The notes: a model not told the origin generated them from the letters alone. Positions 177 to 63,013 are shown, numbered from the whole stretch's first letter. The stretch: 63,241 nt of DNA, filler included, from Caldilineae bacterium (GCA_037446815.1; 3 parts of 3 records of this genome joined end to end with filler, not necessarily neighbours in it), one strand, 5' to 3'. Numbers and translations are program-made.

Positions 177-326
177 GAGTCGGTTCCAAAGTCTGTTGGT
201 GGCTGTCATTGCGAGGGCACGCAGTGCCCGAAGCAATCTCCGGGGCGTGGGATTGCTTCGCTTCGCTCGCAATGACACACGAGGAGAGTGCGCCTACGGT
301 TCACCAACACAAGATGAAACCGACTC
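177..326 (+). mobile_element. MITE-like element, cargo type A
   Basis: Ends GAGTCGGTTCCAAAGTCTGTTGG...CCAACACAAGATGAAACCGACTC. Flanked by the perfect 8-bp direct repeat CCGTCCCC (169-176, 327-334). Confidence 0.85.
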
Positions 327-341
327 CCGTCCCCGCGCCGC

Positions 342-370
342 TTGACAGGCGGGCAAGGTTTGTATATCCT
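342..370 (+). promoter_or_regulatory. sigma70-type promoter of the dprA operon
   Basis: TTGACA (342-347), 17 bp, TATCCT (365-370). Confidence 0.7.
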
Positions 371-392
371 TGCCCAAAGGAGAGAGCAGGGA

Positions 393-1499
393 TTGGACGA
401 GGTCGCGTTCTGGGTTGGGTTCAACCTCGTGCCAGGCATAGGCCCGAAGCGCATCCGCATGCTACTGGATCACTTCGGCGACCTGTCGCGCGCGTGGGAG
501 GCAACCGCCTGGGACTTGGCCGCCGCCGGGCTGGACGGCCGGTGCATCCAGGCGCTCCAGGAGACCCGTGCGAAAGTCTCTCTGGAGCGCGAACTGGCCC
601 GCGTGGAACGCGCCGGCGCGCGAGTCCTGACATGGCGCGACCCCGACTATCCGCGCCTCCTCCGCAACATCGCGGCTTCGCCGCCGGTTCTGTACGTCCG
701 GGGCACCATCCTGTCCCGCGACGAACTGGCGCTGGCGGTCGTCGGCACGCGCAAGGCCAGCACCTACGGCCGCGAGGTGGCCCACCTCCTGACATCGGAG
801 ATCGCGCGCTGCGGCGTTACCATCGTGAGCGGCCTGGCGCGCGGGATTGACGGAGAAGCGCATCGGGCCGCCCTATCGGCTGGGGGCCGCACCATCGCCG
901 TGCTGGGTTCGGGCGTGGATGTCATCTACCCTGCCGAGCACCGCGAACTGGCCGAACGCATCACGCGGAACGGCGCCCTGGTTAGCGAGTATCCCATGGG
1001 CGCCAAGCCGGAGGCGGGCAACTTCCCCGCGCGCAACCGAATCATCAGCGGCTTGGCGCTGGGGACGCTGGTCGTTGAGGCCGGGCGAGAAAGCGGCGCG
1101 CTGCTCACGGCCCGCCACGCGCTGGAGCAGGGCCGAGACGTATTCGCCGTTCCGGGCAACATCCTGGCGGCGGGCAGCCGTGGCGTCAACGAACTCATCC
1201 GCGACGGCGCCAAGCCCGTCGTGTGTGCCGAGGACATCCTCCAGGAACTCAACCTGAACATGGTGCAGGAATTCGTAGAAGCGCGGGAGAGCCTGCCCGC
1301 CACGAGCAGCGAGGCCCTGCTCTTGCAGCATCTGGCCGCAGAGCCGACCCATGTGGACGAACTGGTGCGCGCCACCGGCATGTCCATCGCCGACGTGAAC
1401 AGCACACTGGTGATGATGGAACTCAAGGGGCTGGTGCGGCACGTGGGCAGCATGAACTACGTCGCCGTGCGCGAGGGGCGGCAGGGCTATCGCCCGTAA
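393..1499 (+). CDS. dprA: DNA-processing protein DprA (Smf)
   Basis: Motifs AVVGTR, VSGLARGID, FPARNRIISGL and a C-terminal winged helix. Likely TTG start at 393 after a purine-rich RBS. Confidence 0.95.
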   Translation: MDEVAFWVGFNLVPGIGPKRIRMLLDHFGDLSRAWEATAWDLAAAGLDGRCIQALQETRAKVSLERELARVERAGARVLTWRDPDYPRLLRNIAASPPVLYVRGTILSRDELALAVVGTRKASTYGREVAHLLTSEIARCGVTIVSGLARGIDGEAHRAALSAGGRTIAVLGSGVDVIYPAEHRELAERITRNGALVSEYPMGAKPEAGNFPARNRIISGLALGTLVVEAGRESGALLTARHALEQGRDVFAVPGNILAAGSRGVNELIRDGAKPVVCAEDILQELNLNMVQEFVEARESLPATSSEALLLQHLAAEPTHVDELVRATGMSIADVNSTLVMMELKGLVRHVGSMNYVAVREGRQGYRP

Positions 1500-1520
1500 C
1501 ACTTTGTTGGGAAGGGAGAT

Positions 1521-2603
1521 TTGACCATCGCTACGCTGAACATTTTGATCCTGGCGGGCGGACTGGGCACCCGTTTGTGGCCCAGCAGCCGCGAACACAT
1601 GCCCAAGCACCTTCTGTCTCTGACCGGAGAGCATTCGCTCCTGCGGGAAACCTATCTTCGCATCGCCCCCCTGGTGGAACCGCACCAGGTGTACGTGGCC
1701 ACGGCCGCGGCCCATGCAGACCAGGTGCGCGACCAATTGCCCGAATTGCCGCCGGAAAACATCCTCGTGGAGCCCATGGGCAAGGGCACGGCCCCGTGCA
1801 TTGGCCTGGCCGCGCTGCACATGCGGCGCAAGAACCCCGATGCCGTCATGGCATCGCTGCACGCCGACCACGTGATTCTGGATCCCGAAGGGTTCCGCGC
1901 GGCCTTGAAGGCGGCGGTTGTCCTCGCCGAGCAGGGCTACATCGCCACGCTGGGCATCACGCCGCGCTGGGCCGAGACCGGCTTCGGCTACATTGAGCGC
2001 GGCCAGCCGTTGGATGACGCCGTCGCCATGCCCGCCTACCATGTCATCCAGTTCACCGAGAAGCCCAACGCCGACAGGGCGCGGCAGTTCGTGGAGAGCG
2101 GCCGATACTACTGGAACAGCGGCATCTTCGTCTGGAAACTGTCCCGCATCCTGGACGACATGCGGCACCTGCTGCCCGAGTTGAGCGCCGCGCTGGACGA
2201 GATAGACTGCGCGCTGGACACGCCCCACGCATGCGCAGTCCTGGAGCGCGTATGGCCCACCATCCAGCCCATTACGGTGGACGTGGGCATCATGGAGAAG
2301 GCGCGGCGCGTCGCCGTCATCCCCATCTCCGTCGGCTGGAACGACGTGGGGTCGTGGAAGGCCGTGGCCGAAGTCATCCCGGCGGATGAGGACGGCAACG
2401 TCATCGTAGGCGAGAACGTCATCCTGGACACGACCGGCACCCTCATCTGGGGCGGCAAGCGGCTCGTCGCCGCCATCGGCCTGAGGGACATGGTCATCGT
2501 GGACACCGACGACGTGCTCCTCGTCTGCCCGAAGGATCGGGCGCAGGACGTGAAGGTCCTTGTGGACATGCTCCGCAAGGCGAACAAGCGACAGTACCTC
2601 TAG
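1521..2603 (+). CDS. manC: Mannose-1-phosphate guanylyltransferase
   Basis: Motifs ILAGGLGTRLWPSSR..PK, FTEKP, WNSGIF and WNDVGSW. Confidence 0.9.
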   Translation: MTIATLNILILAGGLGTRLWPSSREHMPKHLLSLTGEHSLLRETYLRIAPLVEPHQVYVATAAAHADQVRDQLPELPPENILVEPMGKGTAPCIGLAALHMRRKNPDAVMASLHADHVILDPEGFRAALKAAVVLAEQGYIATLGITPRWAETGFGYIERGQPLDDAVAMPAYHVIQFTEKPNADRARQFVESGRYYWNSGIFVWKLSRILDDMRHLLPELSAALDEIDCALDTPHACAVLERVWPTIQPITVDVGIMEKARRVAVIPISVGWNDVGSWKAVAEVIPADEDGNVIVGENVILDTTGTLIWGGKRLVAAIGLRDMVIVDTDDVLLVCPKDRAQDVKVLVDMLRKANKRQYL

Positions 2604-2627
2604 ACGACGCAAAGCGAGGCGCATAAC

Positions 2628-4982
<2,355 letters not shown>

Positions 4983-4992
4983 GCAGCCGTGT

Positions 4993-5988
4993 ATGCAAAC
5001 GCAAACCGAGAGCACAAAGCCGTCTGTCCTGCAGATGCACCTGGACCGCTTTGTCGCCTACCTGCAGCACGAGAAGGGCGCGTCTCCGTACACCATCAAG
5101 AATTACAGCACCGAGATTCGCGAGTTCATTGACTTTGCGACAGACGAGGACGTGGCCGACTGGTCGGCCGTGGATGTGCCGCTCATTCGCCGCTACCTCT
5201 TGTGGCTCAGCAGCCGCAACCTGGCCCAGGCCAGCGTCGCCCGCCGATTGTCCGAACTCCGCTCCTTCGCGCAGTACCTCATGCGCAACGGCGACATCGC
5301 GCAGAATCCCTTCCGCCAGGTCTCGCTGCCCCGACTGCCGGAGCGTCTTCCCAGATACCTGGAGTACGGCGAGGTGCTCGCCATGCTCCGCGTGCCCGAC
5401 ATCTCCACCCCCGCCGGGCTTCGCGACCGCGCCATCCTGGAGGTGATGTACGCCAGCGGTATCCGCGTCTCCGAAGTGGCGGGCCTGAACGTCGGCGATT
5501 ACGAGCGCGATGAGGCGCGGCTGCGCGTGTGGGGCAAGGGCGCGAAGGAGCGAATCGCGTTCCTGGGCGAGCCGGCCATTCGGGCGCTAGACGCCTACAT
5601 CGCCGACGGGAGGCCGCGCCTGCTGGCCGCCGCCCACCGCCCCACCGCCACGAACGCCCTGTTCGTCAACCGCTTTGGCCTGCGCCTTTCGGTGCGCAGC
5701 GTGGATACCCTGGTGCGGGAGACGGCCCGCGCCGCCGGCATCACGCGCCGCGTAACGCCGCACGTGCTGCGCCACACGTTCGCCACCCACCTGCTCAACG
5801 GTGGAGCCGACCTCCGCTTCATCCAGGAGATGCTGGGCCATTCGGACATCTCCACCACCCAAATCTACACCCACGTGAGCCAGGAGCGGCTCCGCGAAGT
5901 GTACCTGCGCGCCCACCCGCGTTCGCGCGCCGACAACAGCAGCGACAGACTGTCGCCTGGCGCCAACCCCACCACTGTGGCACGCTGA
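4993..5988 (+). CDS. xerC: Tyrosine recombinase XerC/XerD
   Basis: [46 protein letters not shown]. Classic position after topA. Confidence 0.85.
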
Positions 5989-6010
5989 TTGCACATGCGA
6001 GAGGAGAACG

Positions 6011-7096: not shown

Positions 7097-7159
7097 GTTG
7101 CGGGTGGCGGGCCGCTTGCAACGAAGCGCCCGCCGCCATTCTGAATAGCGGAGGCAGGG

Positions 7160-7450
7160 CTGTCATCTGGGGCGCGGAGCGCCGAAGAATCTCGCCGACC
7201 GAGATGCTTCGCCTTCGCCTCAACAGGACACCANNNNNNNNNNNNNNNNNNNNNNNNNNNNNNNNNNNNNNNNNNNNNNNNNNNNNNNNNNNNNNNNNNN
7301 NNNNNNNNNNNNNNNNNNNNNNNNNNNNNNNNNCGACCGAGATGCTTCGCCTTCGCCTCAACAGGACACCACGAAAACCGTCATTCTGAGGCGCGAAGCG
7401 CCGAAGAATCTCGGCGACCGAGATGCTTCGCCTTCGCCTCAGCAGGACAC
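7160..7450. repeat. Tandem REP-like cassettes spanning a 100-N assembly gap (7234-7333)
   Basis: CGACCGAGATGCTTCGCCTTCGCCTCA(A/G)CAGGACAC occurs at about 7196, 7334 and 7415. Confidence 0.75.
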
Positions 7451-7479
7451 AGCAGGGAGGTCAACCGACGCACGAGGAG

Positions 7480-7629
7480 GATTCGGTTCCAAAGTTTCTT
7501 GGTAGCCGTCATTGCGAGGGCACAGAGTGCCCGAAGCAATCCCCGGGGTGTGGGATTGCTTCGCTTCGCTCGCAATGACACATGGGGAGTGTGCGCCTAC
7601 GGTTCACCAACACAAGATGGAACCGACGC
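7480..7629 (+). mobile_element. MITE-like element, cargo type A
   Basis: GATTCGGTTCCAAAGT...CCAACACAAGATGGAACCGAC with the same interior as 177-326. No clear target-site duplication. Confidence 0.7.
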
Positions 7630-8804: not shown

Positions 8805-8821
8805 TCTATCGGCGACAGAGA

Positions 8822-10165: not shown

Positions 10166-10229
10166 AGTGTAGTCGGAGTCCGCGCCCGTGTCAACCCGAC
10201 TTGAACGCTCCCACGCCTTGCGGTATACT
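10166..10229. promoter_or_regulatory. Back-to-back divergent sigma70 promoters
   Basis: Minus strand TTGACA (10194-10189)-17-TACACT (10171-10166). Plus strand TTGAAC (10201)-17-TATACT (10224). Confidence 0.6.
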
Positions 10230-12821: not shown

Positions 12822-13034
12822 ATTTCCCCAAGGGCGACTGCGGCGCGCGGTAGGCAGGCATGCCCTGCGCCCGAACGCGTCGGGAGGCCCGCCCCTATTC
12901 TATCGCCTCGCCCCTCCCAGTCAAAAAGGTTTGTTTCACCGCGGAGACGGGGAGCACGCAGAGAAAATCAAGATTCCTCTGCGCTCTCCGCGCTCTCCGC
13001 GGTGAGTTTCATCGCACCGCACAGCGATCGCGAC

Positions 13035-13185
13035 GACTCGGTTCCAAACTGTGTTGGTCTGTCCCGCGCACTGCCTCCCCACTCTGTCATGCTGAGCCGA
13101 AGGCGAAGCATCTCGGTCAGCGAGATTCTTCGCGGCTTCGCCGCTCAGAATGACGGTAGAGGCCAACAAACTTTGGAACCGTCTC
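13035..13185 (-). mobile_element. MITE-like element, cargo type B
   Basis: GACTCGGTTCCAAACTGTGTTGG...CCAACAAACTTTGGAACCGTCTC. Perfect 8-bp direct repeat ATCGCGAC (13027-13034, 13186-13193). Confidence 0.85.
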
Positions 13186-13200
13186 ATCGCGACGCGAAAA

Positions 13201-13229
13201 TTGACATCCGCCGCCATCGGTGGCATCCT
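13201..13229 (+). promoter_or_regulatory. sigma70-type promoter
   Basis: TTGACA (13201)-17-CATCCT (13224) with an extended TG. Confidence 0.6.
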
Positions 13230-14713: not shown

Positions 14714-14965
14714 GTTCCCCCCACGGCGTGGATTTGCCCCATGATAGGCGGGATGGGCGCGCCTGTCAACATGATGCAGATGCGGATGAGGAGAGACCTG
14801 ACCCCCTCGTTCCTCCGAAAGCCAGGGGTGAGGGCGTCGCTCCCTCGCCCACTGGGAGAGGGCTGGGGTGAGGGCGTCGCCAGCGCCCTCGCAATGGCGG
14901 TTACCCCCAGACCTTGGAACCGCGTCCAGACCCGCCATCCCGACACGCGCAGCGCCCGCAGAATC

Positions 14966-15790: not shown

Positions 15791-15940
15791 GAGTCGGTTT
15801 CATCTTGTGTTGGTGAACCGTAGGCGCACTCTGATCGTGTGTCATTGCGAGCGAAGCGAAGCAATCCCACGCCCCGGAGATTGCTTCGGGCACTGCGTGC
15901 CCTCGCAATGACAGCGACCAACAAACTTTGGGACCGACTC
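15791..15940 (-). mobile_element. MITE-like element, cargo type A
   Basis: GAGTCGGTTTCATCTTGTGTTGG...CCAACAAACTTTGGGACCGACTC. Flanks GATAGCGG and AATAGCGG match 7/8. Confidence 0.85.
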
Positions 15941-16525: not shown

Positions 16526-16741
16526 CACCCGCGCGCCATCCCGTCATTCTGACGCGCGAAGCGCCGAAGAGTCTCGCCCTCCCATCTGCGCCATCCGCGG
16601 ATGCAACCCCCGCCCGACATTGCCATGGCGGACAACGTGTGACGCACCTCGGAGGTGCGTTGCACGGAACCCTCACCGCGAGGGGCTAGCCCCCGTGCAT
16701 GGCCCATTTGCCCCTCTGCGGCGTGGATGACCGCGGCTCGC

Positions 16742-16917
16742 GACTCGGCTCCATCTTGTGTCGGCCTGTCCCACCCACCGCCTCCCCTCCCTTCGTCATG
16801 CTGAGCCGAAGGCGATACGCCCTCGCCCTTTGGGAGAGGGCTGGGGTGAGGGGCGAGATTCTTCGCGGCTTCGCCGCTCAGAATGACAGTGGACGCCAAC
16901 AGACTCTGGAACGACCA
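16742..16917 (-). mobile_element. MITE-like element, cargo type B with an extra GGGAGAGGG palindrome
   Basis: GACTCGGCTCCATCTTGTG...CCAACAGACTCTGGAACGACCA. Perfect 8-bp direct repeat CGGCTCGC (16734-16741, 16918-16925). Confidence 0.8.
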
Positions 16918-16932: not shown

Positions 16933-16960
16933 TTGCAATATCCGCCTCCTGTGCTATAAT
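16933..16960 (+). promoter_or_regulatory. sigma70 promoter of mreBC
   Basis: TTGCAA (16933)-16-TATAAT (16955) with an extended TG. Confidence 0.7.
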
Positions 16961-21665: not shown

Positions 21666-21812
21666 GTATTTCCTATAAATTTTAATGTTCAACTTCGCGC
21701 ACGCGGTGCGGTCCCGCTCCCTGAAACTGCAAAGTGAGTGCTATTCGTGCAGATTCGTGTTATTCGTGGATACAACCCTCGGGTCGGTTCCAAACTGTGT
21801 TGGTGAAACGCA

Positions 21813-21912
21813 NNNNNNNNNNNNNNNNNNNNNNNNNNNNNNNNNNNNNNNNNNNNTTAATTAATTAANNNNNNNNNNNNNNNNNNNNNNNNNNNNNNNN
21901 NNNNNNNNNNNN
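21813..21912. other. Artificial contig-join spacer
   Basis: N run containing TTAATTAATTAA (stops in all six frames). Confidence 0.95.
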
Positions 21913-21987
21913 CGCCCCCTCGCAACGACGGTTACCAACCGGCCTCGGAACCGAATCCTTGCAAAGGCCCCGCCGCTGGCCGTCCTC

Positions 21988-23016: not shown

Positions 23017-23092
23017 GTTTATCCTCCTTGGGAGTTCGTTGCATGCGGAGTATGGCAGAAGTGGCCCGCGCTGTCAAGCCGCCGTCCCGCGC

Positions 23093-23192
23093 CATTCGGT
23101 TCCAAAGTCTTTTGGCATCTACTGTCATTCTGAGCGGCGAAGCCGCGAAGAATCTTGCTGACCGAGATGCTTCGCCTTCGGCTCAGCGTGAC
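23093..23192 (+). mobile_element. Partial MITE-like element, cargo type B (right end missing)
   Basis: CATTCGGTTCCAAAGTCTTTTGG followed by the type B cassette. Confidence 0.65.
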
Positions 23193-23488
23193 ACAACAGG
23201 GCTGTCATTGTGAGCGGCGAAGCGGTGAGGAATCTCCCGCCCTCACCCCCACCCTCTCCCGACGGGCGAGGGCGCCGCGGCCCCCGTCATCCTGCGCCGC
23301 GAAGAGCGAAGAATCTCCTCGTCTCCGCGCCCTCCGCGCTCTCCGTGGTGCATCTCAGCCCCCAGTCGCGCCCTGGCCGGACCATCCGCGCGCAATTGCA
23401 TTTCGCCTGCCCTGTGCTATACTTCGGGGGCAAGAGCCGCAGGCACCACGGCCAACGTCGGGGCCTTGCGCCACCCGCGAGGAGGCAC

Positions 23489-28389: not shown

Positions 28390-28650
28390 ACAATCTCCTT
28401 TCGCAGTCGCGGCAGAGGGGCACCGCATGGGGCATTCTACCACCGACTGATGGGCGGCGCAAGCCCATCTCGCTTCGCCCGCGAGGACAGATGGGCTGCA
28501 ACGTGCGACGCACTTCCGAAGTGCGTCGCACGTTATCTATTCGCGTGGATTCGTGCCACTCGCGGTTACAAGAACCGTCATCCTGACGCGCGGAGCGCCG
28601 AAGGATCTCGCCCTATCCGCGCAATCCGTGCCATCCGTGGATACGGCGGG

Positions 28651-34749: not shown

Positions 34750-35316
34750 ATGCTAGAGCGCGTGCTCACAAGCCACCTCGTCTACGACGGGCGGTTGCTC
34801 CGCCTGCGTGTGGACGAGGTGGAATTGCCTAGCGGGCGGCGCACCACGCGCGAAGTTGTGGAGGCGCGTGGCGCTGTGGGCATCGTCGCGCTGGACGATG
34901 AGGGGCGCGTAGTCCTGGTGCGGCAGTACCGCAGGCCCGCCGAGCGCGAACTGTGGGAGATTCCCGCGGGGACGCTGGAGCGTGGGGAAGATCCCTCCGA
35001 CTGCGCCCGCAGGGAGTTGGCAGAGGAGACCGGATTCGCCGCCCGCGAGATTGTGCCGCTCGCCGGGTTCTACACTTCGCCGGGCTTCTGCGACGAGTGG
35101 ATGCACCTGTTCCTCGCCCGCGGCCTGTCCGAGGGCGACCAGGCGCAAGAATGCGACGAGTTCATCCACGTGGCGCTGGTGCCTCTGGCCCAGGCCCTCG
35201 CCATGATCCGCACCGGCGACATCTGCGACGCGAAAACCATCGTGGGGCTGCTCCTGGTGGCCGCCCGTCCGCAGGGTGAAGGCAGAGCCCTCCCTCGCCC
35301 GCCGGGAGAGGGCTAG
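34750..35316 (+). CDS. NUDIX hydrolase (ADP-ribose pyrophosphatase-like)
   Basis: GTLERGEDPSDCARRELAEETG, YTSPG, DAKT. Confidence 0.9.
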   Translation: MLERVLTSHLVYDGRLLRLRVDEVELPSGRRTTREVVEARGAVGIVALDDEGRVVLVRQYRRPAERELWEIPAGTLERGEDPSDCARRELAEETGFAAREIVPLAGFYTSPGFCDEWMHLFLARGLSEGDQAQECDEFIHVALVPLAQALAMIRTGDICDAKTIVGLLLVAARPQGEGRALPRPPGEG

Positions 35317-35369
35317 GGTGAGGGCAGAGGCAACGGCCCGCGCACACCATGACACAGGAGGCACGCACC

Positions 35370-36815: not shown

Positions 36816-37103
36816 CGCGTCAGCACGACAGGGCATCGCACCCCGGAGCCGAGGGAGCGCGACTCGGTTCGCCGATTCGGTTCCAAAGTCTCTTGGTAAA
36901 CGTCATGGCGAGAGCGCGGGCGACGCCCTCACACCAGCCCTCGCCCAGTGCGCGAGGGGGCGACGCCCACATCCCAATCCTGTTCGCGTGGATTCGCGTT
37001 ATTCGCGGTTACAAGAACCGTCATTCTGAGGCGCGAAGCGCCGAAGAATCTCGCGGCCCTATTCGGGCAGAGTCGTTTTCTTGGCGGCTACCAACGCGGC
37101 CTG

Positions 37104-42726: not shown

Positions 42727-42761
42727 GGTGCTCGCGGTTCACCGCGTGATGGTTCTTGTAG

Positions 42762-42796
42762 AACGTGCGACGCACCTCCGAGGTGCGTCGCACGTT
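42762..42796. repeat. Palindromic REP-like unit AACGTGCGACGCACCT-N3-AGGTGCGTCGCACGTT
   Basis: Near-perfect palindrome. Related copies at about 16635, 28500 and 63115. Confidence 0.75.
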
Positions 42797-42877
42797 GGCC
42801 CTCCATCTGTCATTGCGAGCCTGTGCGGGCGACCCGCCGGGGCGACCGGCCGGTCGCCCGTGCATGATGGCGCCCCG

Positions 42878-43022
42878 GACTCGGTTCCAAAGGTTGTTGG
42901 TATTTGTCATTGCGAGGGCGCGGAGCGCCCGAAGCAATCGCCGCAGCGTGGGGTTGCTTCGCTTCGCTCGCAACGACACACGGGGGTGCATGCGGTTCAC
43001 CAAAACAAGGTGAAGCCGACCC
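42878..43022 (+). mobile_element. MITE-like element, cargo type A
   Basis: GACTCGGTTCCAAAGGTTGTTGG...CCAAAACAAGGTGAAGCCGACCC. Perfect 8-bp direct repeat GCGCCCCG (42870-42877, 43023-43030). Confidence 0.85.
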
Positions 43023-43037: not shown

Positions 43038-43066
43038 TTGACACCGGAGCAAGAATGTGCTATACT
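43038..43066 (+). promoter_or_regulatory. sigma70 promoter of a gene lost at the contig end
   Basis: TTGACA-17-TATACT with an extended TG. RBS AGGAGG at 43122-43127 lies just before the join. Confidence 0.75.
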
Positions 43067-43132: not shown

Positions 43133-43232
43133 NNNNNNNNNNNNNNNNNNNNNNNNNNNNNNNNNNNNNNNNNNNNTTAATTAATTAANNNNNNNNNNNN
43201 NNNNNNNNNNNNNNNNNNNNNNNNNNNNNNNN
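43133..43232. other. Artificial contig-join spacer
   Basis: N run containing TTAATTAATTAA. Confidence 0.95.
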
Positions 43233-54813: not shown

Positions 54814-54873
54814 GTTTCAGTTTTTGAAACCTAGTTTCATTTTGATTATATCACCGAATCTCCCCCCTGTCAA
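54814..54873 (-). promoter_or_regulatory. Consensus sigma70 promoter with a putative IclR operator
   Basis: TTGACA (54873-54868)-17-TATAAT (54850-54845). Inverted repeat GTTTCA-N5-TGAAAC (54814-54830) plus a half site at 54834. Confidence 0.8.
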
Positions 54874-54888
54874 ATTCTCGTTCCCCGC

Positions 54889-55039
54889 GATTCGGTTCCA
54901 AAGTCTGTTGGCATCTACCGTCATTCTGAGCGGCGAAGCCGCGAAGAATCTCGCTGACCGAGATGCTTCGCCTTCGGCTCAGCATGACAGAGCGGAGAGG
55001 CGGTGCGCGGGGCAGACCAACACAAGATGGAACCGAGTC
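54889..55039 (+). mobile_element. MITE-like element, cargo type B, followed by a degenerate second left end at 55048
   Basis: GATTCGGTTCCAAAGTCTGTTGG...CCAACACAAGATGGAACCGAGTC. Flanks TTCCCCGC and CTCTCCGC match 6/8. Confidence 0.8.
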
Positions 55040-55338
55040 CTCTCCGCGATTCGGTTCCGGGGCCTGTTGGTTGCCCTCATTGCGATAGCCCACCGCGCCC
55101 GCAGCGATCTCCCCCTTCCAGGCCCTCTCCCAGTGCGTGGTGGCCCGTTGTCCTGTCATCCTTCGCCGCTTCGCGGCTCAGAATCTCGCGCGCCTATCCG
55201 AGCAACCCGCGTTGTTCGCGGTTATCGCCCCACGAGATGGATTCACCACGATCGCGCGAACGCACGAGGAGGGTGTGGCGTGGCCCACCGACACAGGGCA
55301 AAGCGTGCGCGCACAACAAACTCCGACGCACGCCATCG

Positions 55339-55488
55339 GATTCGGTTCCAAAGTCTGTTGGTATTTGTCATTGCGAGGGCGCGGAGCGCCCGAAGCAATC
55401 TCTGGGGCGTGAGGTTGCTTCGCTTCGCTCGCAACGATACACGGGGAGAGTGTCCATGCGTTTCACCAACACAAGATGGGACCGAGTT
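55339..55488 (+). mobile_element. MITE-like element, cargo type A
   Basis: GATTCGGTTCCAAAGTCTGTTGG...CCAACACAAGATGGGACCGAGTT. Perfect 8-bp direct repeat CGCCATCG (55331-55338, 55489-55496). Confidence 0.85.
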
Positions 55489-55649
55489 CGCCATCGCGTG
55501 CGTCGGAGTTGCTATCCCATGGGGATTACACCGCCCTTCGTTACCAGCCCGACCGCGCCCGCGGACGCGCCACACCGAGCCGTTCGACGGGCAACCATCC
55601 GCCTCGGCGGGAATCGGAAGCGTGCGGGCTAGAATTGCCGGCGCGCCTT

Positions 55650-56702
55650 CTACAACGCGATCTCCGAGCCCAGTTCCCGCGCAAGGCCGCGGATTTCGGC
55701 CAGCACGCTAGCGGGCACAGGCACGCCATTTTGCAGTCGGTCTTGTCGCTTGAGCCACTCTATCTCTCCCGGGAGGTAGATGCGCTCCACGCCGGGGGCG
55801 CGGGGGGAATTCAAGATGTCGCTCACGAGCGTTTGCATATCCCGCCGGAAGTCGTCCCAATCCGCAAAGGCCGAGATGTCCAGCGCCTGCATGACGAACC
55901 CCACCGACGAGGGCTGTTTCAGGTCGTGCACAGAGGTCAGCCGCGTGCCGAAATCCGCCCCCGACAGCACGCCCGACAACACGTCAATGATGAGGGCCAG
56001 CCCATACCCTTTCGGCCCGCCGATGGGCACCAGCGTCCCGTCCAATGCGGCCTTCGGGTCATCGGTCGGGCGGCCCTCCGCGTCCAGCGCCCACCCCAGC
56101 GGGATGCGCTCACCCTTGCTCGCCGCCAGGCGAATCTTCCCGCGCGCCACGACCGAGGAGGCCATGTCCAGGACAATGTCCACATCGCCGCCCGTGGGGA
56201 TGGCGATGCAGATGGGGTTGGTCCCCAAGACCGGCGCCGCCCCGCCCCATGCCGCCATGCTGGGGGCGGCGTTGGCCATCACGATCCCGACCATCCGTTG
56301 CGGCAGCGCCATCATGGCGTAGTAGGCCGCGATGCCGAAGTGATTGGCGTTGCGCACGGCGGCCACGCCCACGCCATGCTGTCGGGCGCGTTCCATGGCC
56401 TGATTCATCGCGAGCACACCCGCCACCTGTCCGAAGCCACGCTGGGCATCTAGGAGGACCGACGCGCTCCGCTCTCGCAAGACCTTGACCTCTGTCTTCG
56501 GCGTCATCAGCCCCGCCTGCACCCTGTGGATGTACGCGGGCAGTCGCAACAGCCCATGCGACTCCACGCCGCGCAGATCGGCCTCCACCACGATTTCGGC
56601 AATCAGGCGCGCCTCGTCGGGCGGCACACCAACGTTTTCCAGCAGGGTGCTGCAAGCCTGCGCCAGCACACCCGCCTGGATTCGGACAGTTTCCCCGGAC
56701 AT
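55650..56702 (-). CDS. Ldh2/Mdh2 family oxidoreductase (DlgD/AllD/ComC-like)
   Basis: ADLRGVESHGL, NANHFG, GTNPI, LDMASS, GGPKGYGL, LPGE. Confidence 0.9.
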   Translation of the reverse strand: MSGETVRIQAGVLAQACSTLLENVGVPPDEARLIAEIVVEADLRGVESHGLLRLPAYIHRVQAGLMTPKTEVKVLRERSASVLLDAQRGFGQVAGVLAMNQAMERARQHGVGVAAVRNANHFGIAAYYAMMALPQRMVGIVMANAAPSMAAWGGAAPVLGTNPICIAIPTGGDVDIVLDMASSVVARGKIRLAASKGERIPLGWALDAEGRPTDDPKAALDGTLVPIGGPKGYGLALIIDVLSGVLSGADFGTRLTSVHDLKQPSSVGFVMQALDISAFADWDDFRRDMQTLVSDILNSPRAPGVERIYLPGEIEWLKRQDRLQNGVPVPASVLAEIRGLARELGSEIAL

Positions 56703-56833: not shown

Positions 56834-57544
56834 CTACGCTACGCCCAGATAGGCGTGCTGCACAACCGGGTTCTCGCGCAATGCTTCAGCGGTATCCGTG
56901 AAGCGGATGCGCCCCGTTTCCAGCACCACGCCGTGATGGGCAATCTTCAGCGCAGCGCGCGCGTTCTGCTCCGACAGCAGGATGGTGATGCCCTGGCGGT
57001 TCAGTTCCGCGATAATCTCAAAAACGTGTTGAACGAGCATGGGAGCAAGCCCCAGCGACGGCTCGTCCATGATGAGAATCTGCGGCCTGGACATCAGCGC
57101 GCGGGCGATGGCCAGCATCTGCTGCTCGCCACCGCTCAGCGACCCGGCCAGCTGCCGCTCGCGCCCCTTCAGGGCCGGGAACAGTTCGTACATGCGCGCC
57201 TTGTCCTGCGCGATCCCATCCGCGTCCGAGCGGTGATACGCGCCCATCTCCAGGTTCTCGTCCACGGTGAGCACCGGGAAAACGCGGCGACCTTCGGGCA
57301 CGTACCCGATTCCGCGCGCCACGATTTTGTGAGCCGGAAGCCGGTGCACCGGTTCGCCGTCCAAGTAGATGGCCCCTTGCCGAGGGTGCACGATGCCGCA
57401 GATGGCTTTCATCGTTGTGGACTTGCCCGCCCCGTTCGCGCCGATGAGGGTGGTGATCTCGCCCTTGCGCACCTCAAAGGAAATCCCCTTGACGGCGTGG
57501 ATGTGCCCGTAGTAGATGTGCACGTTCTCCAGGGTCAACATCAC
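56834..57544 (-). CDS. livF: Liv-type ABC transporter ATP-binding subunit
   Basis: GANGAGKST, LSGGEQQMLAIARALM, DEPSLGLAP. Confidence 0.88.
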   Translation of the reverse strand: MMLTLENVHIYYGHIHAVKGISFEVRKGEITTLIGANGAGKSTTMKAICGIVHPRQGAIYLDGEPVHRLPAHKIVARGIGYVPEGRRVFPVLTVDENLEMGAYHRSDADGIAQDKARMYELFPALKGRERQLAGSLSGGEQQMLAIARALMSRPQILIMDEPSLGLAPMLVQHVFEIIAELNRQGITILLSEQNARAALKIAHHGVVLETGRIRFTDTAEALRENPVVQHAYLGVA

Positions 57545-58302
57545 TCCCCCTCCTTGCCGAGGTACGCCTCAATGACGACGGGGTCGCAACTCACGGCGCT
57601 GCACGAACCCTCGGCGATCTTCTTCCCGTAGTCCAGCACCGACACCACATCGGAGATTTCCATCACCAGTTTCATGTCATGTTCCACGAGGAAGATGGTG
57701 ATGCCAGCCGCGCGGATTTGCAGCAGGATGTCGCGCAACTCGGCCGTCTCGGTCTCGTTGAGGCCGGCGGCAGGCTCGTCCAGCAGAACCACCGTCGGCT
57801 CGGTCGCCAGCGCCCGCGCGATCTCCACCCGCCGCTGCAGGCCGTAGGGCAGGCTGGTCGCGAGTTCGTCGGCGTACTGCTCTATCCGCAGAAGCCGCAA
57901 CTTCTCCATGGCCTTCTCTTTCAGTTGGCGCTCTTCCTGCCGCACTGCCAGGGGCGCCACCACGTGTTGCCAGAAGCGCGTGCGCGCGTGGTGCCCCAGC
58001 GCCACCTGCACATTCTCCAGAACCGTCATGCTGCGGAACAGGCGCAGGTTCTGGAACGTTCGGGCCAGCCCCAGCGCGGTGATCTTGTACGCAGGCAGCC
58101 CGCTAATCGTCTGCCCCTTGAATCGCACCATCCCGCCCGTGGGCTTGTAATAGCCCGACACGACGTTGAAGATGGTGGTCTTGCCCGAGCCGTTAGGCCC
58201 GATGAGGGCGTGGATCTCGCCTTCCTGGATGTTCAGCGACACGTTGTTCACGGCCACCAGGCCGCCGAATTGCATCGTGAGGTTTTCTATCTCTAGCAAC
58301 AT
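57541..58302 (-). CDS. livG: Liv-type ABC transporter ATP-binding subunit
   Basis: GPNGSGKTT, RTFQN, LPYG, DEPAAG, VIEAYLG. Confidence 0.88.
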   Translation of the reverse strand: MLLEIENLTMQFGGLVAVNNVSLNIQEGEIHALIGPNGSGKTTIFNVVSGYYKPTGGMVRFKGQTISGLPAYKITALGLARTFQNLRLFRSMTVLENVQVALGHHARTRFWQHVVAPLAVRQEERQLKEKAMEKLRLLRIEQYADELATSLPYGLQRRVEIARALATEPTVVLLDEPAAGLNETETAELRDILLQIRAAGITIFLVEHDMKLVMEISDVVSVLDYGKKIAEGSCSAVSCDPVVIEAYLGKEGE

Positions 58303-58306
58303 GGCG

Positions 58307-59314
58307 CTACCTCGCTTCTCCGGATGGCCCGTTGCCTGCCTCGCCGGTGTCTGCTTGGCGGGCCAAGCGGGATGCCTGCCGCTCCCGCCAGCGTGCGGCG
58401 ATGCCCATCACCCCGCCGGGGAAGAACAGCACCACCAGCACCACCGCCACGCCGTAGAACACCAACTGCCAGTCCCGGAATGTCCGCAAGGCTTCCTGCA
58501 GGATGACCAGAACGCCGCCCACCAGCGACCCCAGCAGATTGCCCATCCCGCCCACCATCGTCATGGTGAGGACAAAAAGCGTGGAGCGGAACTCAAAGAT
58601 GTCTGGGCTGATGTACGTGTTGAGGTGGGCGAACAGTACGCCGGCCACCCCCGCATACACCGCGCTGATCGTGATGGCAAGAATCTGGTAGAACCCGATG
58701 TTGACGCCCATGGCCTTGGCCGCCACATAGTCATCCCGCACCGCGCGGAACGCCCGGCCAAAACGGTGCCGCGTGATCTGCCGCGCAATCAGGTAGCCGA
58801 GGATGACCGCCGCCAGAACGAGGTAGTAGTACTTCTGCTCGGAGTTGAACACGAAGCCAAACAGGCTTGGCCGCTTGATGCCGGGGATCCCCATGGCTCC
58901 CCGGGTGATCTTCTCTTCGTTCACTAGGATGATGTTGATGACCTCGCCAAGCCCCAGCGTAACGATGGCCAGGTAGTGCGACCGCACCTTGAGCGAGGGC
59001 AGCGCGACGACGCTCCCGATGACCGCCGTAGCGACCATCGCCGCCGGCAGCGTCAACCAGAAGGGCCACTTGAAGTTGACATTGAGCAGCGCCGCAGTGT
59101 ACGCTCCCACGGCCCAGAACGCGCCCATGGCCAGGTTGATCTGGCCGCAGTAGCCCATGGCGATATTCAGCCCGAGGCTGATGAGGATGTACAGCCCCGT
59201 CATGTTCAGGATACGCACCTGATAGTCGTTCCGCGCGATCTTAGGCATGGCGAGGAGAAGCGCCAACAGCGCCACCAACGCGAGTGTTTTCCACAGGGTC
59301 GTGCGCGTCTTCAT
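58307..59314 (-). CDS. livM: Liv-type ABC transporter permease
   Basis: GLN...GY.GQ, YLAIVTLG, GRAFRAVRDD, PGG. Confidence 0.88.
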   Translation of the reverse strand: MKTRTTLWKTLALVALLALLLAMPKIARNDYQVRILNMTGLYILISLGLNIAMGYCGQINLAMGAFWAVGAYTAALLNVNFKWPFWLTLPAAMVATAVIGSVVALPSLKVRSHYLAIVTLGLGEVINIILVNEEKITRGAMGIPGIKRPSLFGFVFNSEQKYYYLVLAAVILGYLIARQITRHRFGRAFRAVRDDYVAAKAMGVNIGFYQILAITISAVYAGVAGVLFAHLNTYISPDIFEFRSTLFVLTMTMVGGMGNLLGSLVGGVLVILQEALRTFRDWQLVFYGVAVVLVVLFFPGGVMGIAARWRERQASRLARQADTGEAGNGPSGEAR

Positions 59315-59323
59315 CTCGCCCTC

Positions 59324-60217
59324 CTACACCTTCTCAACCGTCGTCTCGCCCACGATGCCGGAGGGCTTGACCATGAGGACGAGAACCATGATGATGAACG
59401 CGATGCCCTTCGTGTAGGCGGATGAGATGAAGCCCGCCGAGATCGCCTCAATCACGCCGAACAGCAGCCCGCCGACGATGGCGCCCGGGATGCTGCCCAG
59501 GCCGCCCAAGATGGCCGCGGCAAACCCCTTGATGCCCACCGCCGCGCTCATGGCCGGGTTCACGTACACGATGGGAGCCGCCAGGATGCCTGCTGCCGAT
59601 GCCAGCCCCGAGCCAATGGCGAACGTTACCGCGTTGGTGAAGTTCACCGGTATCCCCATGGCGCTGGCAATCTCGCGATCCTGAGCCGCCGCACGCATCG
59701 CCTTGCCCACCTTCGTCCGCGACAAGAACGTCTGCAGGCCGATCATGAGCAGCGTCCCTACCCCGATAACCAGCAGCATCTGCGGCAACAGGGACACGCC
59801 GCCCACAAGGATTGGTTTGGAGGGCAGGGGCGACTTCACCGCAAACCCCTCCGCGCCCCAGATGATGATGGCCAGGTTGTCCAGCATGATCCCCACGCCG
59901 ATGGTGCCCAGAAGCATGAGCATCAGATCCAGGTTCGCCAGGGGGCGGAACAGGCGCTCCAGCAGCACGCCCAATATCGCGGTCAGCACAACGCCGATGA
60001 TGAACGCCGCCCAGTAGGGCAGGTGCAGGCCGGCAACCATCCCCTTGTAGAAGATGATGCCGAAGTAGGTGCCAATCATGTAGATGCTGCCGTGGGCGAA
60101 GTTGACGAGGCCCATGGAACGGTACACCATGGAGTATCCCAGGGCCACCAGGGCGTAGATGCTGCCAATGCCCAGGCCGCCGACGATGGTCTGCACAAGA
60201 ATGACCGTCTTGGTCAT
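59324..60217 (-). CDS. livH: Liv-type ABC transporter permease
   Basis: GSIYALVALG, VNFAHG, GKAMRA, AAILGGLGSIPGA, KPSG. Confidence 0.88.
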   Translation of the reverse strand: MTKTVILVQTIVGGLGIGSIYALVALGYSMVYRSMGLVNFAHGSIYMIGTYFGIIFYKGMVAGLHLPYWAAFIIGVVLTAILGVLLERLFRPLANLDLMLMLLGTIGVGIMLDNLAIIIWGAEGFAVKSPLPSKPILVGGVSLLPQMLLVIGVGTLLMIGLQTFLSRTKVGKAMRAAAQDREIASAMGIPVNFTNAVTFAIGSGLASAAGILAAPIVYVNPAMSAAVGIKGFAAAILGGLGSIPGAIVGGLLFGVIEAISAGFISSAYTKGIAFIIMVLVLMVKPSGIVGETTVEKV

Positions 60218-60262
60218 GCCCCTCCTTTCAAGAACCGTCTAGACGTTCCAGCCGAAAGGAGA

Positions 60263-60296
60263 CAAGAGGGAGGCCGCGGGTGCAGCCTCCCTCTTG
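60263..60296. terminator. Intercistronic hairpin after the binding-protein gene
   Basis: CAAGAGGGAGGC...GCCTCCCTCTTG, a perfect 12-bp stem. Confidence 0.55.
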
Positions 60297-60305
60297 CAGC
60301 CGCAT

Positions 60306-61523
60306 CTACTGGACCGACACGGGGGTCAGTTTGCCGTCCTTGACAACGCCGATGCCCACGTTGTGCAGGCCTTCGCCGTTCTCGTCGTAGCAAATCTCGC
60401 CCTGCAAGCCCTGGACGCCGCAAATCTTGTGGAGTTCCTCGGTGATGCGCTCGGGCGTGATGTCGGGATAGGCCTTCTCCAGCGCCATGATGAGCACCGT
60501 AGCGCCATCATAGGCCTTGGCACCGTGGCTCTCCGGCTCGTCGCCCCAGCGGGCCTTGTATCGCGCCGCGAAGTCGCGGGTCATGTCGTTGAGATCGTTG
60601 GTGATGTACGGGTTGGAGTAGTAGGTGCCCTCCGCAGCATCCCCCGCAACCTCAACGAACTTGGTCGTGCCGATAGCCGCGCCGCCCGCGAATTGGCCGG
60701 TGAAGCCCAACTGCCGCGCCTGCTTGGCGATGAGGCCCGAAGCAACCTCGGAGCCGCCGAACAGGATGACCTCCGGATTGGTCTGGAGAATCTTGGTCAA
60801 CTGGCCGGTGAAGTCCTTGTCGTCAATCGCGTACCACTCCACGGCCAGGGGCTCCAGCCCGTGTTCCTTCAGGGCGTTGGTCTGGTATTCCGCCTCGCCC
60901 TTGCCGTAGGCCGACGTGTCGGAAATGATCGCGAACTTCTTGAACCCTTTGCCCACCATGAAGTCCACGATGCTCTTCTCATACGCGGGCCCAGCCGGGC
61001 AATCGCGGAACACGTACTTGCTGCCCTTCTGGGTAATGGTCGCGTTGAGCGCGGAGGTCAGATGCGGGATCTTGTACTCTTTGAAGATGTCCACGACCGC
61101 CAGGGTTGTCGTGCTATTGGTGCATGCGAACGCCGCCACCACCTTGTCCTGAGTGATGAGTTTCTGGGCCAGGGCTACGGCCTTGGTCGGGTCGGCCTCG
61201 TCGTCTTCCTGAATCAGCACCAGCGGCCTGCCGTGGATGCCGCCCTGCGCGTTCTTGGCCTCAAAGGCCAGCAGGATGCCGCGCTCGTCCCATTCGCCCA
61301 GGATGGCATTCGTGCCGGTCTTTGGCGCAATCCAGCCGATCTTGATGGGCTCAGGCGGCTGGGTCGGAGCCGCGGTGGGAGCCGCAGTCGGCTGCGCGGG
61401 CGCCGTGGTCGGTTGGGCCGCGGGCTTCGTGGGCGTGGGGGTAGCCTTCGCGCCGCACGCGCCCAGCAGCACCGCAACAATGGACAGCAGGGTAACCAGA
61501 AGATACACATTTCGCCGGGTCAT
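60306..61523 (-). CDS. Liv-type ABC transporter substrate-binding lipoprotein
   Basis: LGAC lipobox, Pro/Thr linker, IKIG...P.TG, GGIHGR, DFTGQLTKI, YDG. Confidence 0.9.
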   Translation of the reverse strand: MTRRNVYLLVTLLSIVAVLLGACGAKATPTPTKPAAQPTTAPAQPTAAPTAAPTQPPEPIKIGWIAPKTGTNAILGEWDERGILLAFEAKNAQGGIHGRPLVLIQEDDEADPTKAVALAQKLITQDKVVAAFACTNSTTTLAVVDIFKEYKIPHLTSALNATITQKGSKYVFRDCPAGPAYEKSIVDFMVGKGFKKFAIISDTSAYGKGEAEYQTNALKEHGLEPLAVEWYAIDDKDFTGQLTKILQTNPEVILFGGSEVASGLIAKQARQLGFTGQFAGGAAIGTTKFVEVAGDAAEGTYYSNPYITNDLNDMTRDFAARYKARWGDEPESHGAKAYDGATVLIMALEKAYPDITPERITEELHKICGVQGLQGEICYDENGEGLHNVGIGVVKDGKLTPVSVQ

Positions 61524-61673
61524 CTGCTCTTCCTCCTCATGTTCCTGAATTCGTGGGTGGACCAGTCTCGCAAATCGGGATGACTCAGGTTTTCGGCGCT
61601 CTCACCTCCTTTCTCCTGTCAGTGCCCTCGGGTATCCTTGTACGGACGCAACGACAGGGGTATTCGGTTCTCC

Positions 61674-61913
61674 CTATCCGCCGGACAACGGTGGGAAGAG
61701 GCACACACGGCTGTCCGGCGGGACATCATGCTCCAGCGTTACCTGCACCCCGTTGACCGTGGCCAGCCCCACCGCTTCGGGGTCAATCCCCAGGCGCAGG
61801 GCCACGTCGCGCACCGTCAGGGGGCCTTCGGCGGCCAGGCGTTGCCGCCGCTCCGCTCGGGGCAGCAGCGCCCCGAATATCTCTACTTCAAACGAGAAGG
61901 TTTCTCCACTCAC
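61674..61913 (-). CDS. MoaD/ThiS family sulfur-carrier protein
   Basis: 79 aa, VNG, C-terminal LFPPLSGG. Confidence 0.85.
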   Translation of the reverse strand: MSGETFSFEVEIFGALLPRAERRQRLAAEGPLTVRDVALRLGIDPEAVGLATVNGVQVTLEHDVPPDSRVCLFPPLSGG

Positions 61914-61914
61914 G

Positions 61915-62751
61915 CTACTGGGTCCGAACAGGTTCCGGCCGAATCCGCCGAACCTTGTTGAGCGTTTCGGTGTGGCTGATGCCGGGCATCAACACGGCAG
62001 CCAGCCCGATCTCGCGGGCAATATCGTCGGCGCAGGCGCGCACCACGGGCCCCAGTTCCAGCATCCGGTCCATCGGCAGGCGGAAGGCCGGCCCGGCCAC
62101 CGCCACCACGGCCACAGGCCTGCCCCGCGGGTCCAGGATGGGCGCGGCTACCGCATTGATGCCGTCCTCATACTCCGACTGAGCAATGGCAAACCCGCGC
62201 TCGCGGGTGGCGCGAAGGTCGGCAAGAAAATCGTCCGGGGAAACGATGGTGTGCTCGGTGTATCGCCGCAGCCCCTGAATCATGATCTGGCGCACCTGGG
62301 CCTCGGGCAGATAGGCCATGACCGCCTTGCCCGATGACGTGCAACACGCAGGCAAGCGCTGGCCGGGGGCGGCGGCCAACTTCACCCGCTGCGGACTCTC
62401 AATGACGTCCAGGTACACAATATCGGTCCCGTCCAACACGCCCAGGTCCACCGTTTCGCGGCACTGCTCGCTCAACTGGCGCAAAAAAGGCCACGCGTGC
62501 CGCCGGATGTCCATCGTCTCCAGCGCCAGCATAGCCAGTTCAAGGACCCGCAGGCCCAGGCGATACTTGCCCGTAGCCTCATCGTGCTGCACGAACCCTC
62601 TGTGCTCCAGGGTAGCCAGGACGCGATGCACGGTGGTCTTGTGCAGTTCCACGCGTTCAGAGACCTCGGTCAGCGTCAACTCCGGCTCCTCGCGCGAGAA
62701 GCACAAGAGTATGTCCAACGCCCTATCCACAGCGCGAATCGGCTTGCTCAA
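61915..62751 (-). CDS. IclR family transcriptional regulator
   Basis: VDRALDIL, KTTVHRVL.TL, CTSSGKA, AVAAPI. Clear paralogue of 53993-54775. Confidence 0.95.
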   Translation of the reverse strand: MSKPIRAVDRALDILLCFSREEPELTLTEVSERVELHKTTVHRVLATLEHRGFVQHDEATGKYRLGLRVLELAMLALETMDIRRHAWPFLRQLSEQCRETVDLGVLDGTDIVYLDVIESPQRVKLAAAPGQRLPACCTSSGKAVMAYLPEAQVRQIMIQGLRRYTEHTIVSPDDFLADLRATRERGFAIAQSEYEDGINAVAAPILDPRGRPVAVVAVAGPAFRLPMDRMLELGPVVRACADDIAREIGLAAVLMPGISHTETLNKVRRIRPEPVRTQ

Positions 62752-62785
62752 AGCCTATCCTCCATCGGAAGACGTGGCTGCGGCG

Positions 62786-62846
62786 GTTGCACACCGTGCA
62801 ACTCGGTTGCACAGCATAGTATAGCACAGAATCCGCGCCGTGTCAA
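62786..62846 (-). promoter_or_regulatory. sigma70 promoter with a putative IclR operator
   Basis: TTGACA (62846-62841)-17-TATACT (62823-62818). Inverted repeat GTTGCA-N5-TGCAAC (62786-62802) plus a half site at 62806. Confidence 0.8.
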
Positions 62847-62861
62847 GTACCTATCGCACGA

Positions 62862-63013
62862 GATTCGGGTTCCAAAGCCTGTTGGCATCTACCGTCATTC
62901 TGAGCGGCGAAGCCGCGAAGAATCTCGCTGCCCGAGATGCTTCGCCTTCGGCTCAGCATGACAGAGTGGGGAGGCGGCGCGGGGAGCAGACCAACACAAG
63001 ATGAAACCGACTC
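62862..63013 (+). mobile_element. MITE-like element, cargo type B, followed by a degenerate second left end at 63022
   Basis: GATTCGGGTTCCAAAGCCTGTTGG...CCAACACAAGATGAAACCGACTC. Flanks TCGCACGA and TCGCACGT match 7/8. Confidence 0.82.

Follow-up and report, generated by a model that had tools for sequence, protein, structure and literature searches.

What decides where a short, non-coding repeat comes to rest in a bacterial genome? The question is raised by a 63,241-base stretch of a Caldilineae bacterium genome (GCA_037446815.1), hereafter the window, in which nine complete elements of 145-176 bp and one partial copy are scattered, most of them at one and the same distance from a predicted promoter. 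An earlier note on this stretch had read them as a family of miniature transposable elements with inverted repeats (MITEs) that target promoters. Our analysis leads to the following reading, to which we give a probability of about 0.85: the elements constitute a non-autonomous MITE family of the Mutator/IS256 superfamily, moved in trans and integrating 15 bp upstream of sigma70 promoters.

A profile made from the nine complete elements found each of them again (expectation value (E) 4.9e-44 to 8.6e-31) and also the partial copy, at 23094-23198 (E 6.1e-22, model positions 2-105 of 150). All ten copies listed in the earlier note were recovered in this way; its inventory was incomplete, as fuzzy searches with the terminal inverted repeats (TIRs) returned at least six more degenerate or truncated ends in the window. 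A position-weight scan for extra TIR ends in the window and 28 loci listed by the contig scan described below found none beyond 68 known ends. The TIRs are 23 bp long and imperfect, agreeing with the consensus noted before, and 18 of the 23 positions are complementary between the two ends. The elements begin with G and end with C in most copies, the exceptions being one end each of the copies at 16742 and 55339.

The 23-bp ends are common to two subfamilies, A and B, which have different cores. Subfamily A comprises complete copies at 177..326, 7480..7629, 42878..43022 and 55339..55488 on the plus strand and at 15791..15940 on the minus strand, the last being 97% identical to the copy at 177. 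Subfamily B comprises complete copies at 13035..13185 and 16742..16917 on the minus strand and at 54889..55039 and 62862..63013 on the plus strand, together with the plus-strand copy at 23093..23198, which is truncated on its right (R) side. The length of the 16742 copy, 176 bp, is due to another short repeat nested in its central loop. All of the elements are short and without coding capacity, as is usual for MITEs. The core of each subfamily is a long internal palindrome, and folding of whole elements gave -72 and -71 kcal/mol (z -5.8 and -5.1).

The 8-bp flanks of the nine complete copies are identical at 65 of 72 positions. In the comparison with chance that the earlier note had called for, the left and right flanks of different elements matched at an average of 2.4 of 8 positions, and 0.017% of 200,000 random pairs of 8-mers placed 150 bp apart matched at 8/8. 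Target-site duplications (TSDs) are perfect in five copies, being CCGTCCCC for the 177 copy (at 169-176 and 327-334), ATCGCGAC for 13035, CGGCTCGC for 16742, GCGCCCCG for 42878 and CGCCATCG for 55339. Two more match at 7/8 (15791 and 62862), one at 6/8 (54889) and one at 5/8 (7480), which bears out the count of five perfect and three near-perfect duplications given before. Registers of 6, 7, 9 and 10 bp do not fit the flanks, except for 10 bp at the 7480 copy, where 8 of 10 positions match. The flanking duplications are real, and they are 8 bp long.

Long hairpins in intergenic DNA that is full of other short palindromic modules could also bring to mind structured extragenic repeats of the repetitive extragenic palindromic (REP) or bacterial interspersed mosaic element (BIME) type, spread by some other enzyme or by recombination and not as transposons of the DDE (Asp-Asp-Glu) class. 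TIRs combined with site-specific 8-bp duplications are, however, the signature of DDE transposition, and the same ends bound transposase-coding insertion sequences (ISs) in three of the loci listed below and adjoin transposase fragments in three more. An Rfam scan of the whole window matched 0 families. Taken together, this makes an origin as REP- or BIME-type repeats hardly credible.

The outward flanks of the 20 element ends were scored against TTGACA, a spacer of 16-18 nt and TATAAT, with a maximum of 12 and sites of 9 or above counted as strong; the promoters named here are such consensus predictions. At 7 of the 20 ends the best site lay at exactly 15 bp, with scores of 9-12 of 12, and these are the seven cases that the earlier note had singled out. 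On the plus strand they belong to dprA (-35 at 342-347, -10 at 365-370, facing the R end of the 177 copy), the PIG-L deacetylase gene (-35 at 13201-13206 with a weak -10, CATCCT, facing the left (L) end of the 13035 copy), mreB (-35 at 16933-16938, L end of 16742) and a gene cut by a contig end (-35 at 43038-43043, R end of 42878). On the minus strand they belong to a zinc alcohol dehydrogenase (ADH) gene (-35 at 23072-23077, L end of the truncated 23093 copy), an IclR gene (-35 at 54868-54873, a 12/12 match, L end of 54889) and a second IclR gene (-35 at 62841-62846, L end of 62862). The eighth case is scpA, for which the earlier note had given 14-15 bp and a weak -35; its site (TTGTGC-18-TATAAT) was found 14 bp from the R end of the 15791 copy. 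As noted before, the remaining two copies do not fit, with no promoter at 15 bp from the 7480 copy and none beside the 55339 copy.

Sites scoring at least 9 occur at only 28 of 125,820 window positions on both strands. For 7 or more of 20 ends to have one at a single offset the binomial probability is 3.6e-18, rising to 1.5e-16 on correction for 41 offsets. With corrected gene starts about 15 of these 28 strong sites are intergenic, and 7 of them, roughly half, bear a MITE at 15 bp. An independent promoter scanner, applied to two window segments, lists the sites at 342, 16933, 54873 and 62846, the four strongest promoters there. Divergent, back-to-back promoter-like sites were seen at 10166-10229, with -35 boxes 7 bp apart (10194 on the minus strand, 10201 on the plus strand); the 15-bp target of either would fall inside the other, and both are MITE-free.

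The longest inverted-repeat pair (13032-13206 versus 54868-55042) runs 21 nt beyond one element end and takes in the -35, as might be expected if the promoter belonged to the repeat or was made by it, the elements then being mobile promoter cassettes with coincidental 8-mers. Yet past the element end the match is confined to the -35 hexamer and a few A/T bases, and the 15 intervening bases, the spacer and the -10 regions differ between copies. The duplicated 8-mer, different at every site, lies between TIR and -35, and the promoters drive unrelated housekeeping genes. Since the copies are alike outside their ends only in the -35 and -10 hexamers (plus a few A/T bases by the -35), the promoter is not part of the repeat, and we regard a promoter cassette as extremely improbable.

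Both IclR promoters carry stacked insertions (2/2 cases). In both cases the B copy beside the promoter has exactly 8 bp on its promoter-distal side (55040-55047 and 63014-63021, respectively), after which a third type of element, older and decayed, begins with its L end. The older elements, both in plus orientation, are found at 55048..55309, with an uncertain right end, and at 63022..63086, where the L end is seen and the rest lies toward the window end. Because flanks, 8-mers and outer elements differ between the two loci, these are independent events. Decay, or a position beyond the window, hides the far ends of the older elements, and stacking is read from the two 8-mer copies at each locus. 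The arrangement is what a mechanism measuring from the promoter predicts: because the distance is taken from the promoter, a newcomer would land in the promoter-proximal duplicate of an older copy, duplicate it again and displace the older copy outward.

A similar picture could in principle arise without targeting, if insertion were random and purifying selection kept the harmless copies upstream of promoters, and the two copies elsewhere in intergenic DNA (7480, and 55339 in a terminator loop) indicate that non-promoter sites are usable. Selection, however, would allow varied distances, where seven copies at exactly 15 bp and one at 14 bp were observed; two younger copies occupy exactly the same 8-bp target as older ones; and copies that are 97% identical imply recent events, with little time for sorting. 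We therefore consider selection among random insertions very unlikely. The 55339 copy splits a hairpin with a 12-bp stem (55317-55338 / 55489-55510). As a T-rich tail follows the stem on the minus strand, the hairpin probably serves the Ldh_2 gene (55650-56702, minus strand) as its terminator, and with a MITE in this likely terminator, terminator loops may be an alternative target.

The non-autonomous family proposed here would depend on a helper transposase. The window holds none, as had been stated before (best E 0.2 in a tblastn search with the helper described next). One scan of genome contigs with a 20-nt degenerate TIR pattern gave at least 40 loci. Of those listed, 28 carry a Chloroflexota label (Anaerolineae, Caldilineales, Chloroflexia and others). 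The genome from which the window comes is absent from the list, and BLAST gave no long match to the window there; all statements on relatives refer to the matches listed. The earlier note had suggested a search for a transposase bounded by the same inverted repeats, and such elements were found in other Chloroflexota metagenome-assembled genomes (MAGs): inverted TIRs bound IS-sized elements in loci L002 (1520 bp), L005 (1548 bp) and L007 (1349 bp). Those in L002 and L005 are intact, their products being 428 and 437 aa long and 61% identical to each other, and the L007 copy is broken. Transposase fragments adjoin a TIR in L014, L016 and L021.

The two intact proteins match the Pfam family Transposase_mut (PF00872) with 36.0 and 34.8 bits, respectively (cutoff 21). 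An alignment of 30 family members shows no variation at D171, D234, H258 or E354, and conservation of C255 is at least 90%. The C255-x2-H258 motif lies 21 residues after the second D; in prokaryotic Mutator-like transposases a C/D-x2-H motif is found 11-19 residues past it (PMC3942029). The N-terminus has a four-Cys region. A sequence-profile search of the PDB with the helper returned no transposase, and a fold search was thus needed. The AlphaFold model (mean predicted local distance difference test score 90.6, predicted template modelling (TM) score 0.87) had as its top Foldseek match the IS256-family ISCth4 transposase (6xg8_A; E 2.8e-10, TM score 0.53-0.56, about 400 columns, 12% identity), followed by Hermes and retroviral integrases at E 1e-3 or worse.

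Against the NCBIfam IS256 model (NF033543) the L002 and L005 proteins score 42.5 and 39.6 bits, below the family cutoff of 150, and against the ISH6 model 28.9 and 38.2 bits, with a cutoff of 240; both models are weakly matched by 11/11 family members. The ISKra4 (NF033572) and ISLre2 (NF033529) models gave no match at E <= 1 in L002, L005 or any of the 11 family members, and both models are in the library, since distant homologues touch them marginally. Judged by family models, the helper is an unassigned Mutator-like lineage, nearer to IS256 and ISH6 and outside ISLre2 and ISKra4. Of the helper candidates named in the earlier note (ISLre2, ISKra4, ISH6 and IS256), a Mutator/IS256-like enzyme stood, and by NCBIfam the helper is neither ISLre2 nor ISKra4. 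Its proposal of a non-autonomous family with a Mutator/IS256-like DDE helper acting in trans gains support from the ISs with the same TIRs, PF00872, the catalytic residues, the ISCth4 fold and the enrichment of promoters beside relatives.

The helper family is large: of 8000 candidates scored, 1763 proteins reach E <= 1e-5, most of them encoded on contigs about 1.5 kb long, and 465 clusters (50% identity) score E <= 1e-3 against the helper. In the Protein Atlas the helper falls among Transposase_mut clusters, mostly from Chloroflexota. The names attached to helper-family sources and 10 clusters are only 'transposase-like protein' or 'hypothetical protein', and a tblastn search of 72,556 plasmids gave a single weak match of 60 residues, on a Halococcus plasmid.

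The relatives in other MAGs repeat the association with duplications and promoters. Among 16 paired elements with both flanks, nine have TSDs of 8/8 and one of 7/8. A promoter score of at least 9 within 20 bp was found at 14 of 41 de-duplicated ends in the Chloroflexota-labelled loci, compared with 132 of 20,000 random positions in the same loci (0.66%) and 1 of 12 ends in loci of other phyla. L005, left out of that count because of its short flank, shows TTGCCC-17-TATAAT at a distance of 15 bp. The 14 high-scoring ends, L005 and one near-threshold site make up 16 promoter-adjoining loci, and 13 of them have, beginning no more than 260 nt downstream, a co-oriented open reading frame (ORF) that is 100 aa or longer, with gyrA-like, rpsB-like and cysteine-desulfurase-like genes being included. 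In the IS copies the promoter adjoins the end nearest the transposase start (L005, L007 and L014, and L016 on a weak match of 28 residues). Among the loci listed, a close full-length relative of the window elements was seen only in L010.

The distance to the -35 is not the same in all relatives. It is 14-15 bp in L005, L010, L016 and L038, 4-5 bp in L001, L007, L014, L017, L019, L026 and L027 (with L011/L020 and L033 just under the threshold), 7-10 bp in L025, L032 and L040, and 2 bp in L002. In L017 and L027, of the 4-5 bp class, perfect 8-bp TSDs abut the TIR and take in three or four bases from the start of TTGACA, which shows that the short spacing does not come from a misplaced boundary. 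The relatives at 4-5 bp lie about one helical turn nearer the -35 than those at 15 bp. A variable TIR base, either C or G at L-end position 14, was tried as a predictor of spacing class and was dropped, the prediction not being clean.

The earlier note held that orientation does not matter. In the window 5/5 B copies present their L end to the promoter and 3/3 promoter-adjoining A copies present their R end, against the claim; in other MAGs single MITE families occur in both orientations (L017 versus L026 and L027; L025 versus L032). Two different helpers are one possibility behind the pattern in the window, because the L005 IS has R-type sequence at both ends.

Two further observations concern the listed loci themselves. 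At 1758-1888 of L006, in a MAG labelled Planctomycetota, both TIRs and a perfect 8-bp TSD mark an element of 131 bp, which means either a wider host range or a mis-binned contig. L011 and L020 come from one Caldilineales MAG, and the DNA beyond the same TIR end is identical in these two contigs, pointing to a duplicated region or to a larger repeat that includes the element.

Targeting of this kind has precedents. Repeats of 8-9 bp and a terminal C are features of prokaryotic Mutator-like elements (Guerillot et al. 2014, PMC3942029), and two of their groups lie upstream of promoters. The insertion points of TnGBS and ISLre2 (p-MULT 3) are 15-17 bp upstream of the sigmaA -35, the right inverted repeat being beside the promoter, and in the ISKra4 group (p-MULT 4), thirteen ISs of which four are from Ktedonobacter (Chloroflexi), predicted promoters lie 13-17 bp from either junction (PMC3942029). 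For both groups promoter targeting is linked to a transposase signature that has a conserved Asp between domains N1 and N2 (PMC3942029). The precedent given in the earlier note, duplications of 8-9 bp and insertion upstream of the sigmaA -35, is correct according to the same paper, in which IS256 insertion is reported to be random and contact with the RNA polymerase initiation complex is proposed as the landmark for targeting (PMC3942029). The targeting principle is known, and through the ISKra4 group of Ktedonobacter it is also on record for Chloroflexi (PMC3942029).

This overlap raises the alternative that the elements are ordinary non-autonomous derivatives of the ISKra4 group, that is, of a known family. 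ISKra2/4/5/6 of Ktedonobacter racemifer and their relatives are Mutator-like DDE elements with 8-9-bp repeats, a terminal C and Chloroflexi hosts, and their predicted sigmaA promoters 13-17 bp from the inverted-repeat (IR) junction (PMC3942029) embrace the window's seven copies at 15 bp and its one at 14 bp; the ISKra4 model is moreover marginally matched (E 0.0077, 15 bits) by the N-terminus of P0193, a protein distantly homologous to the helper. Unlike the ISKra4 group, the window elements are non-coding MITEs. Their helper matches neither the ISKra4 nor the ISLre2 model in any member (0/11), and its fold match is to the IS256-family ISCth4, not to ISKra4. The IRs are complementary at 18/23 positions here, as against 83-100% in ISKra4-group ISs, orientation is tied to subfamily in the window where either side may adjoin the promoter in the ISKra4 group, and most listed relatives stand at 4-5 bp. 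The separation from ISKra4 is drawn by protein models, and on balance we judge membership of the ISKra4 group unlikely.

The other known systems resemble the window family in part. TnGBS and ISLre2 share integration upstream of the -35, an intact promoter and 8-9-bp repeats, but are Firmicutes elements of 1.5-52 kb with their right inverted repeat at the promoter, whereas here the end near the transposase start abuts the promoter (three clear IS copies and one weak), and the helper has no ISLre2 model match. With the IS256 family (ISCth4, PDB 6xg8 and 6xgx) the helper shares the full-length fold, Transposase_mut, the DDE triad, C-x2-H, a helical insert and 8-9-bp duplications; it differs in its 12-13% identity, a model score under the cutoff and an N-terminal four-Cys zinc ribbon, and in that IS256 insertion is reported as random (PMC3942029). 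The Correia element of Neisseria, a classical MITE, is likewise short, non-coding, TIR-bounded, hairpin-forming, intergenic and high-copy. According to a review (PMC10969869), however, it carries its own promoters, whereas the elements here lie beside pre-existing promoters at a fixed distance.

The earlier note knew of no such family in Chloroflexota. As the Ktedonobacter ISs show, this does not hold for the phenomenon; for a MITE it stood, in that the literature searches, in the portions of text they covered, gave no description of a Mutator-type or promoter-targeting prokaryotic MITE. A term search of the 2024 review of prokaryotic MITEs (PMC10969869) gave no occurrence of IS256, ISKra4, ISLre2, Mutator or Chloroflex. 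What appears new is the miniature, high-copy form, the exactness of the stacking, the spacing classes that relatives seem to show, and a helper lineage that falls outside both ISLre2 and ISKra4.

Mechanistically, a Mutator/IS256-superfamily DDE transposase of about 430 aa would move the MITEs in trans. Its source would be ISs of 1.35-1.55 kb with the same ends, seen among the loci listed only in other Chloroflexota genomes, and a helper presumably resides elsewhere in this genome. By analogy with IS256 relatives, transposition may proceed by copy-out/paste-in through a circle. Integration with an 8-bp staggered cut would set the element end 15 bp upstream of the -35, the 8-bp duplication and 7 bp being followed by the -35 with the core promoter intact. 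The landmark may be promoter-bound RNA polymerase or sigma and not the DNA sequence alone, and occupied promoters probably still fire. As the earlier note had it, the elements would then occupy the UP-element position and leave the promoters unbroken, which we also infer.

A more specific version can be offered tentatively and with considerable doubt. The helper could be a Mutator-like lineage outside both published promoter-targeting clades, with a fold nearest to IS256/ISCth4, that measures from sigma70 promoters in spacing classes of 14-15 bp (the window plus four further MAGs) and 4-5 bp (three or more others, the TSD including the first -35 bases). Classes about one helical turn apart would be expected if the transposase docked on one face of RNA polymerase or sigma bound at the promoter and did not read a DNA sequence. 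MITEs would in this version sit on roughly half of the strong promoters in the 63-kb sample, and copies would stack at the same phosphodiester bonds.

Several points weigh against a promoter-targeting MITE family moved in trans. No autonomous copy lies in the window and no locus of its own genome is among the matches listed, which leaves the resident helper as an assumption, and MITE and IS are alike only in their ends of about 23 bp, with unrelated interiors. The promoters in the window are predicted by consensus only; the one at 13201, whose -10 (CATCCT) matches at only 3/6, is dropped by the stricter scanner, and 2 of the 10 copies (7480 and 55339) are away from promoters. Subfamily-specific orientation, A by the R end and B by the L end, counts among these points as well. 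The family-wide figures come from a small, unsystematic sample of listed loci.

To our knowledge, promoter-measured integration is rare among bacterial transposons, and contact with the RNA polymerase initiation complex is so far a proposal for its mechanism. The family described here is useful for asking what a transposase measures from. Its helper is small, with a confident predicted structure that maps onto a solved IS256-family transpososome, a 150-bp substrate is easy to build, and natural spacing variants (15, 7-10 and 4-5 bp) make the question directly testable. For annotation, the elements mark sigma70 promoters in uncultured Chloroflexota at single-base precision, and they account for intergenic assembly breaks in these genomes.

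The window has a G+C content of 65.5% and is made up of four contigs with N linkers between them (7234-7333, 21813-21912 and 43133-43232), two of the linkers containing a stop-codon spacer. Its gene map, drawn from ORFs chosen by G+C content at third codon positions and from Pfam matches, is unremarkable: dprA, topA, a Xer-type recombinase gene, dinB, the PIG-L deacetylase gene, scpA and mreB/mreC, together with the zinc ADH, the two IclR regulators and an ATP-binding cassette amino-acid transporter. The N linkers lie within or beside repeats, one of them inside a MITE end. The assembly evidently breaks at these repeat families, so the genome-wide MITE copy number is probably high.

Remnants of the family occur in several places. 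A decayed B-like remnant (7377-7479) adjoins the MITE at 7480. An isolated A-type L end at 36874..36926 (plus strand), from a truncated copy, is followed by unrelated repeat modules and has no promoter. A degenerate TIR end with 4 mismatches lies beside other repeat modules at 14873..14925 (minus strand). Another TIR end, at 21781..21812 (plus strand), is cut by the contig break, the N run starting at 21813, and a degenerate end at 21913..21957 (minus strand) lies just past the break, downstream of the ADH gene.

Other short repeats share the intergenic DNA with the MITEs. A hairpin module of about 35-50 nt, of the same sequence type as the core of subfamily B, stands alone at 7159, 7378, 16541, 28575, 37018 and 63180; as it is also found outside the elements, the MITE cores look assembled from modules. 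A G-rich hairpin repeat of about 40 nt is present as four tandem copies at the window start (1-170) and singly at 14803-14874, 16820-16852 and 35253-35324, and the copy at 16820-16852 is the one nested within the MITE at 16742-16917. Two more intergenic repeat families, a perfect palindrome of about 35 nt and an A/T-richer unit of about 37 nt that often adjoins it, are located at 16633-16687, 28499-28553, 42761-42815 and 63113-63167 and also at 21740, 28537, 36980, 43236 and 63142.

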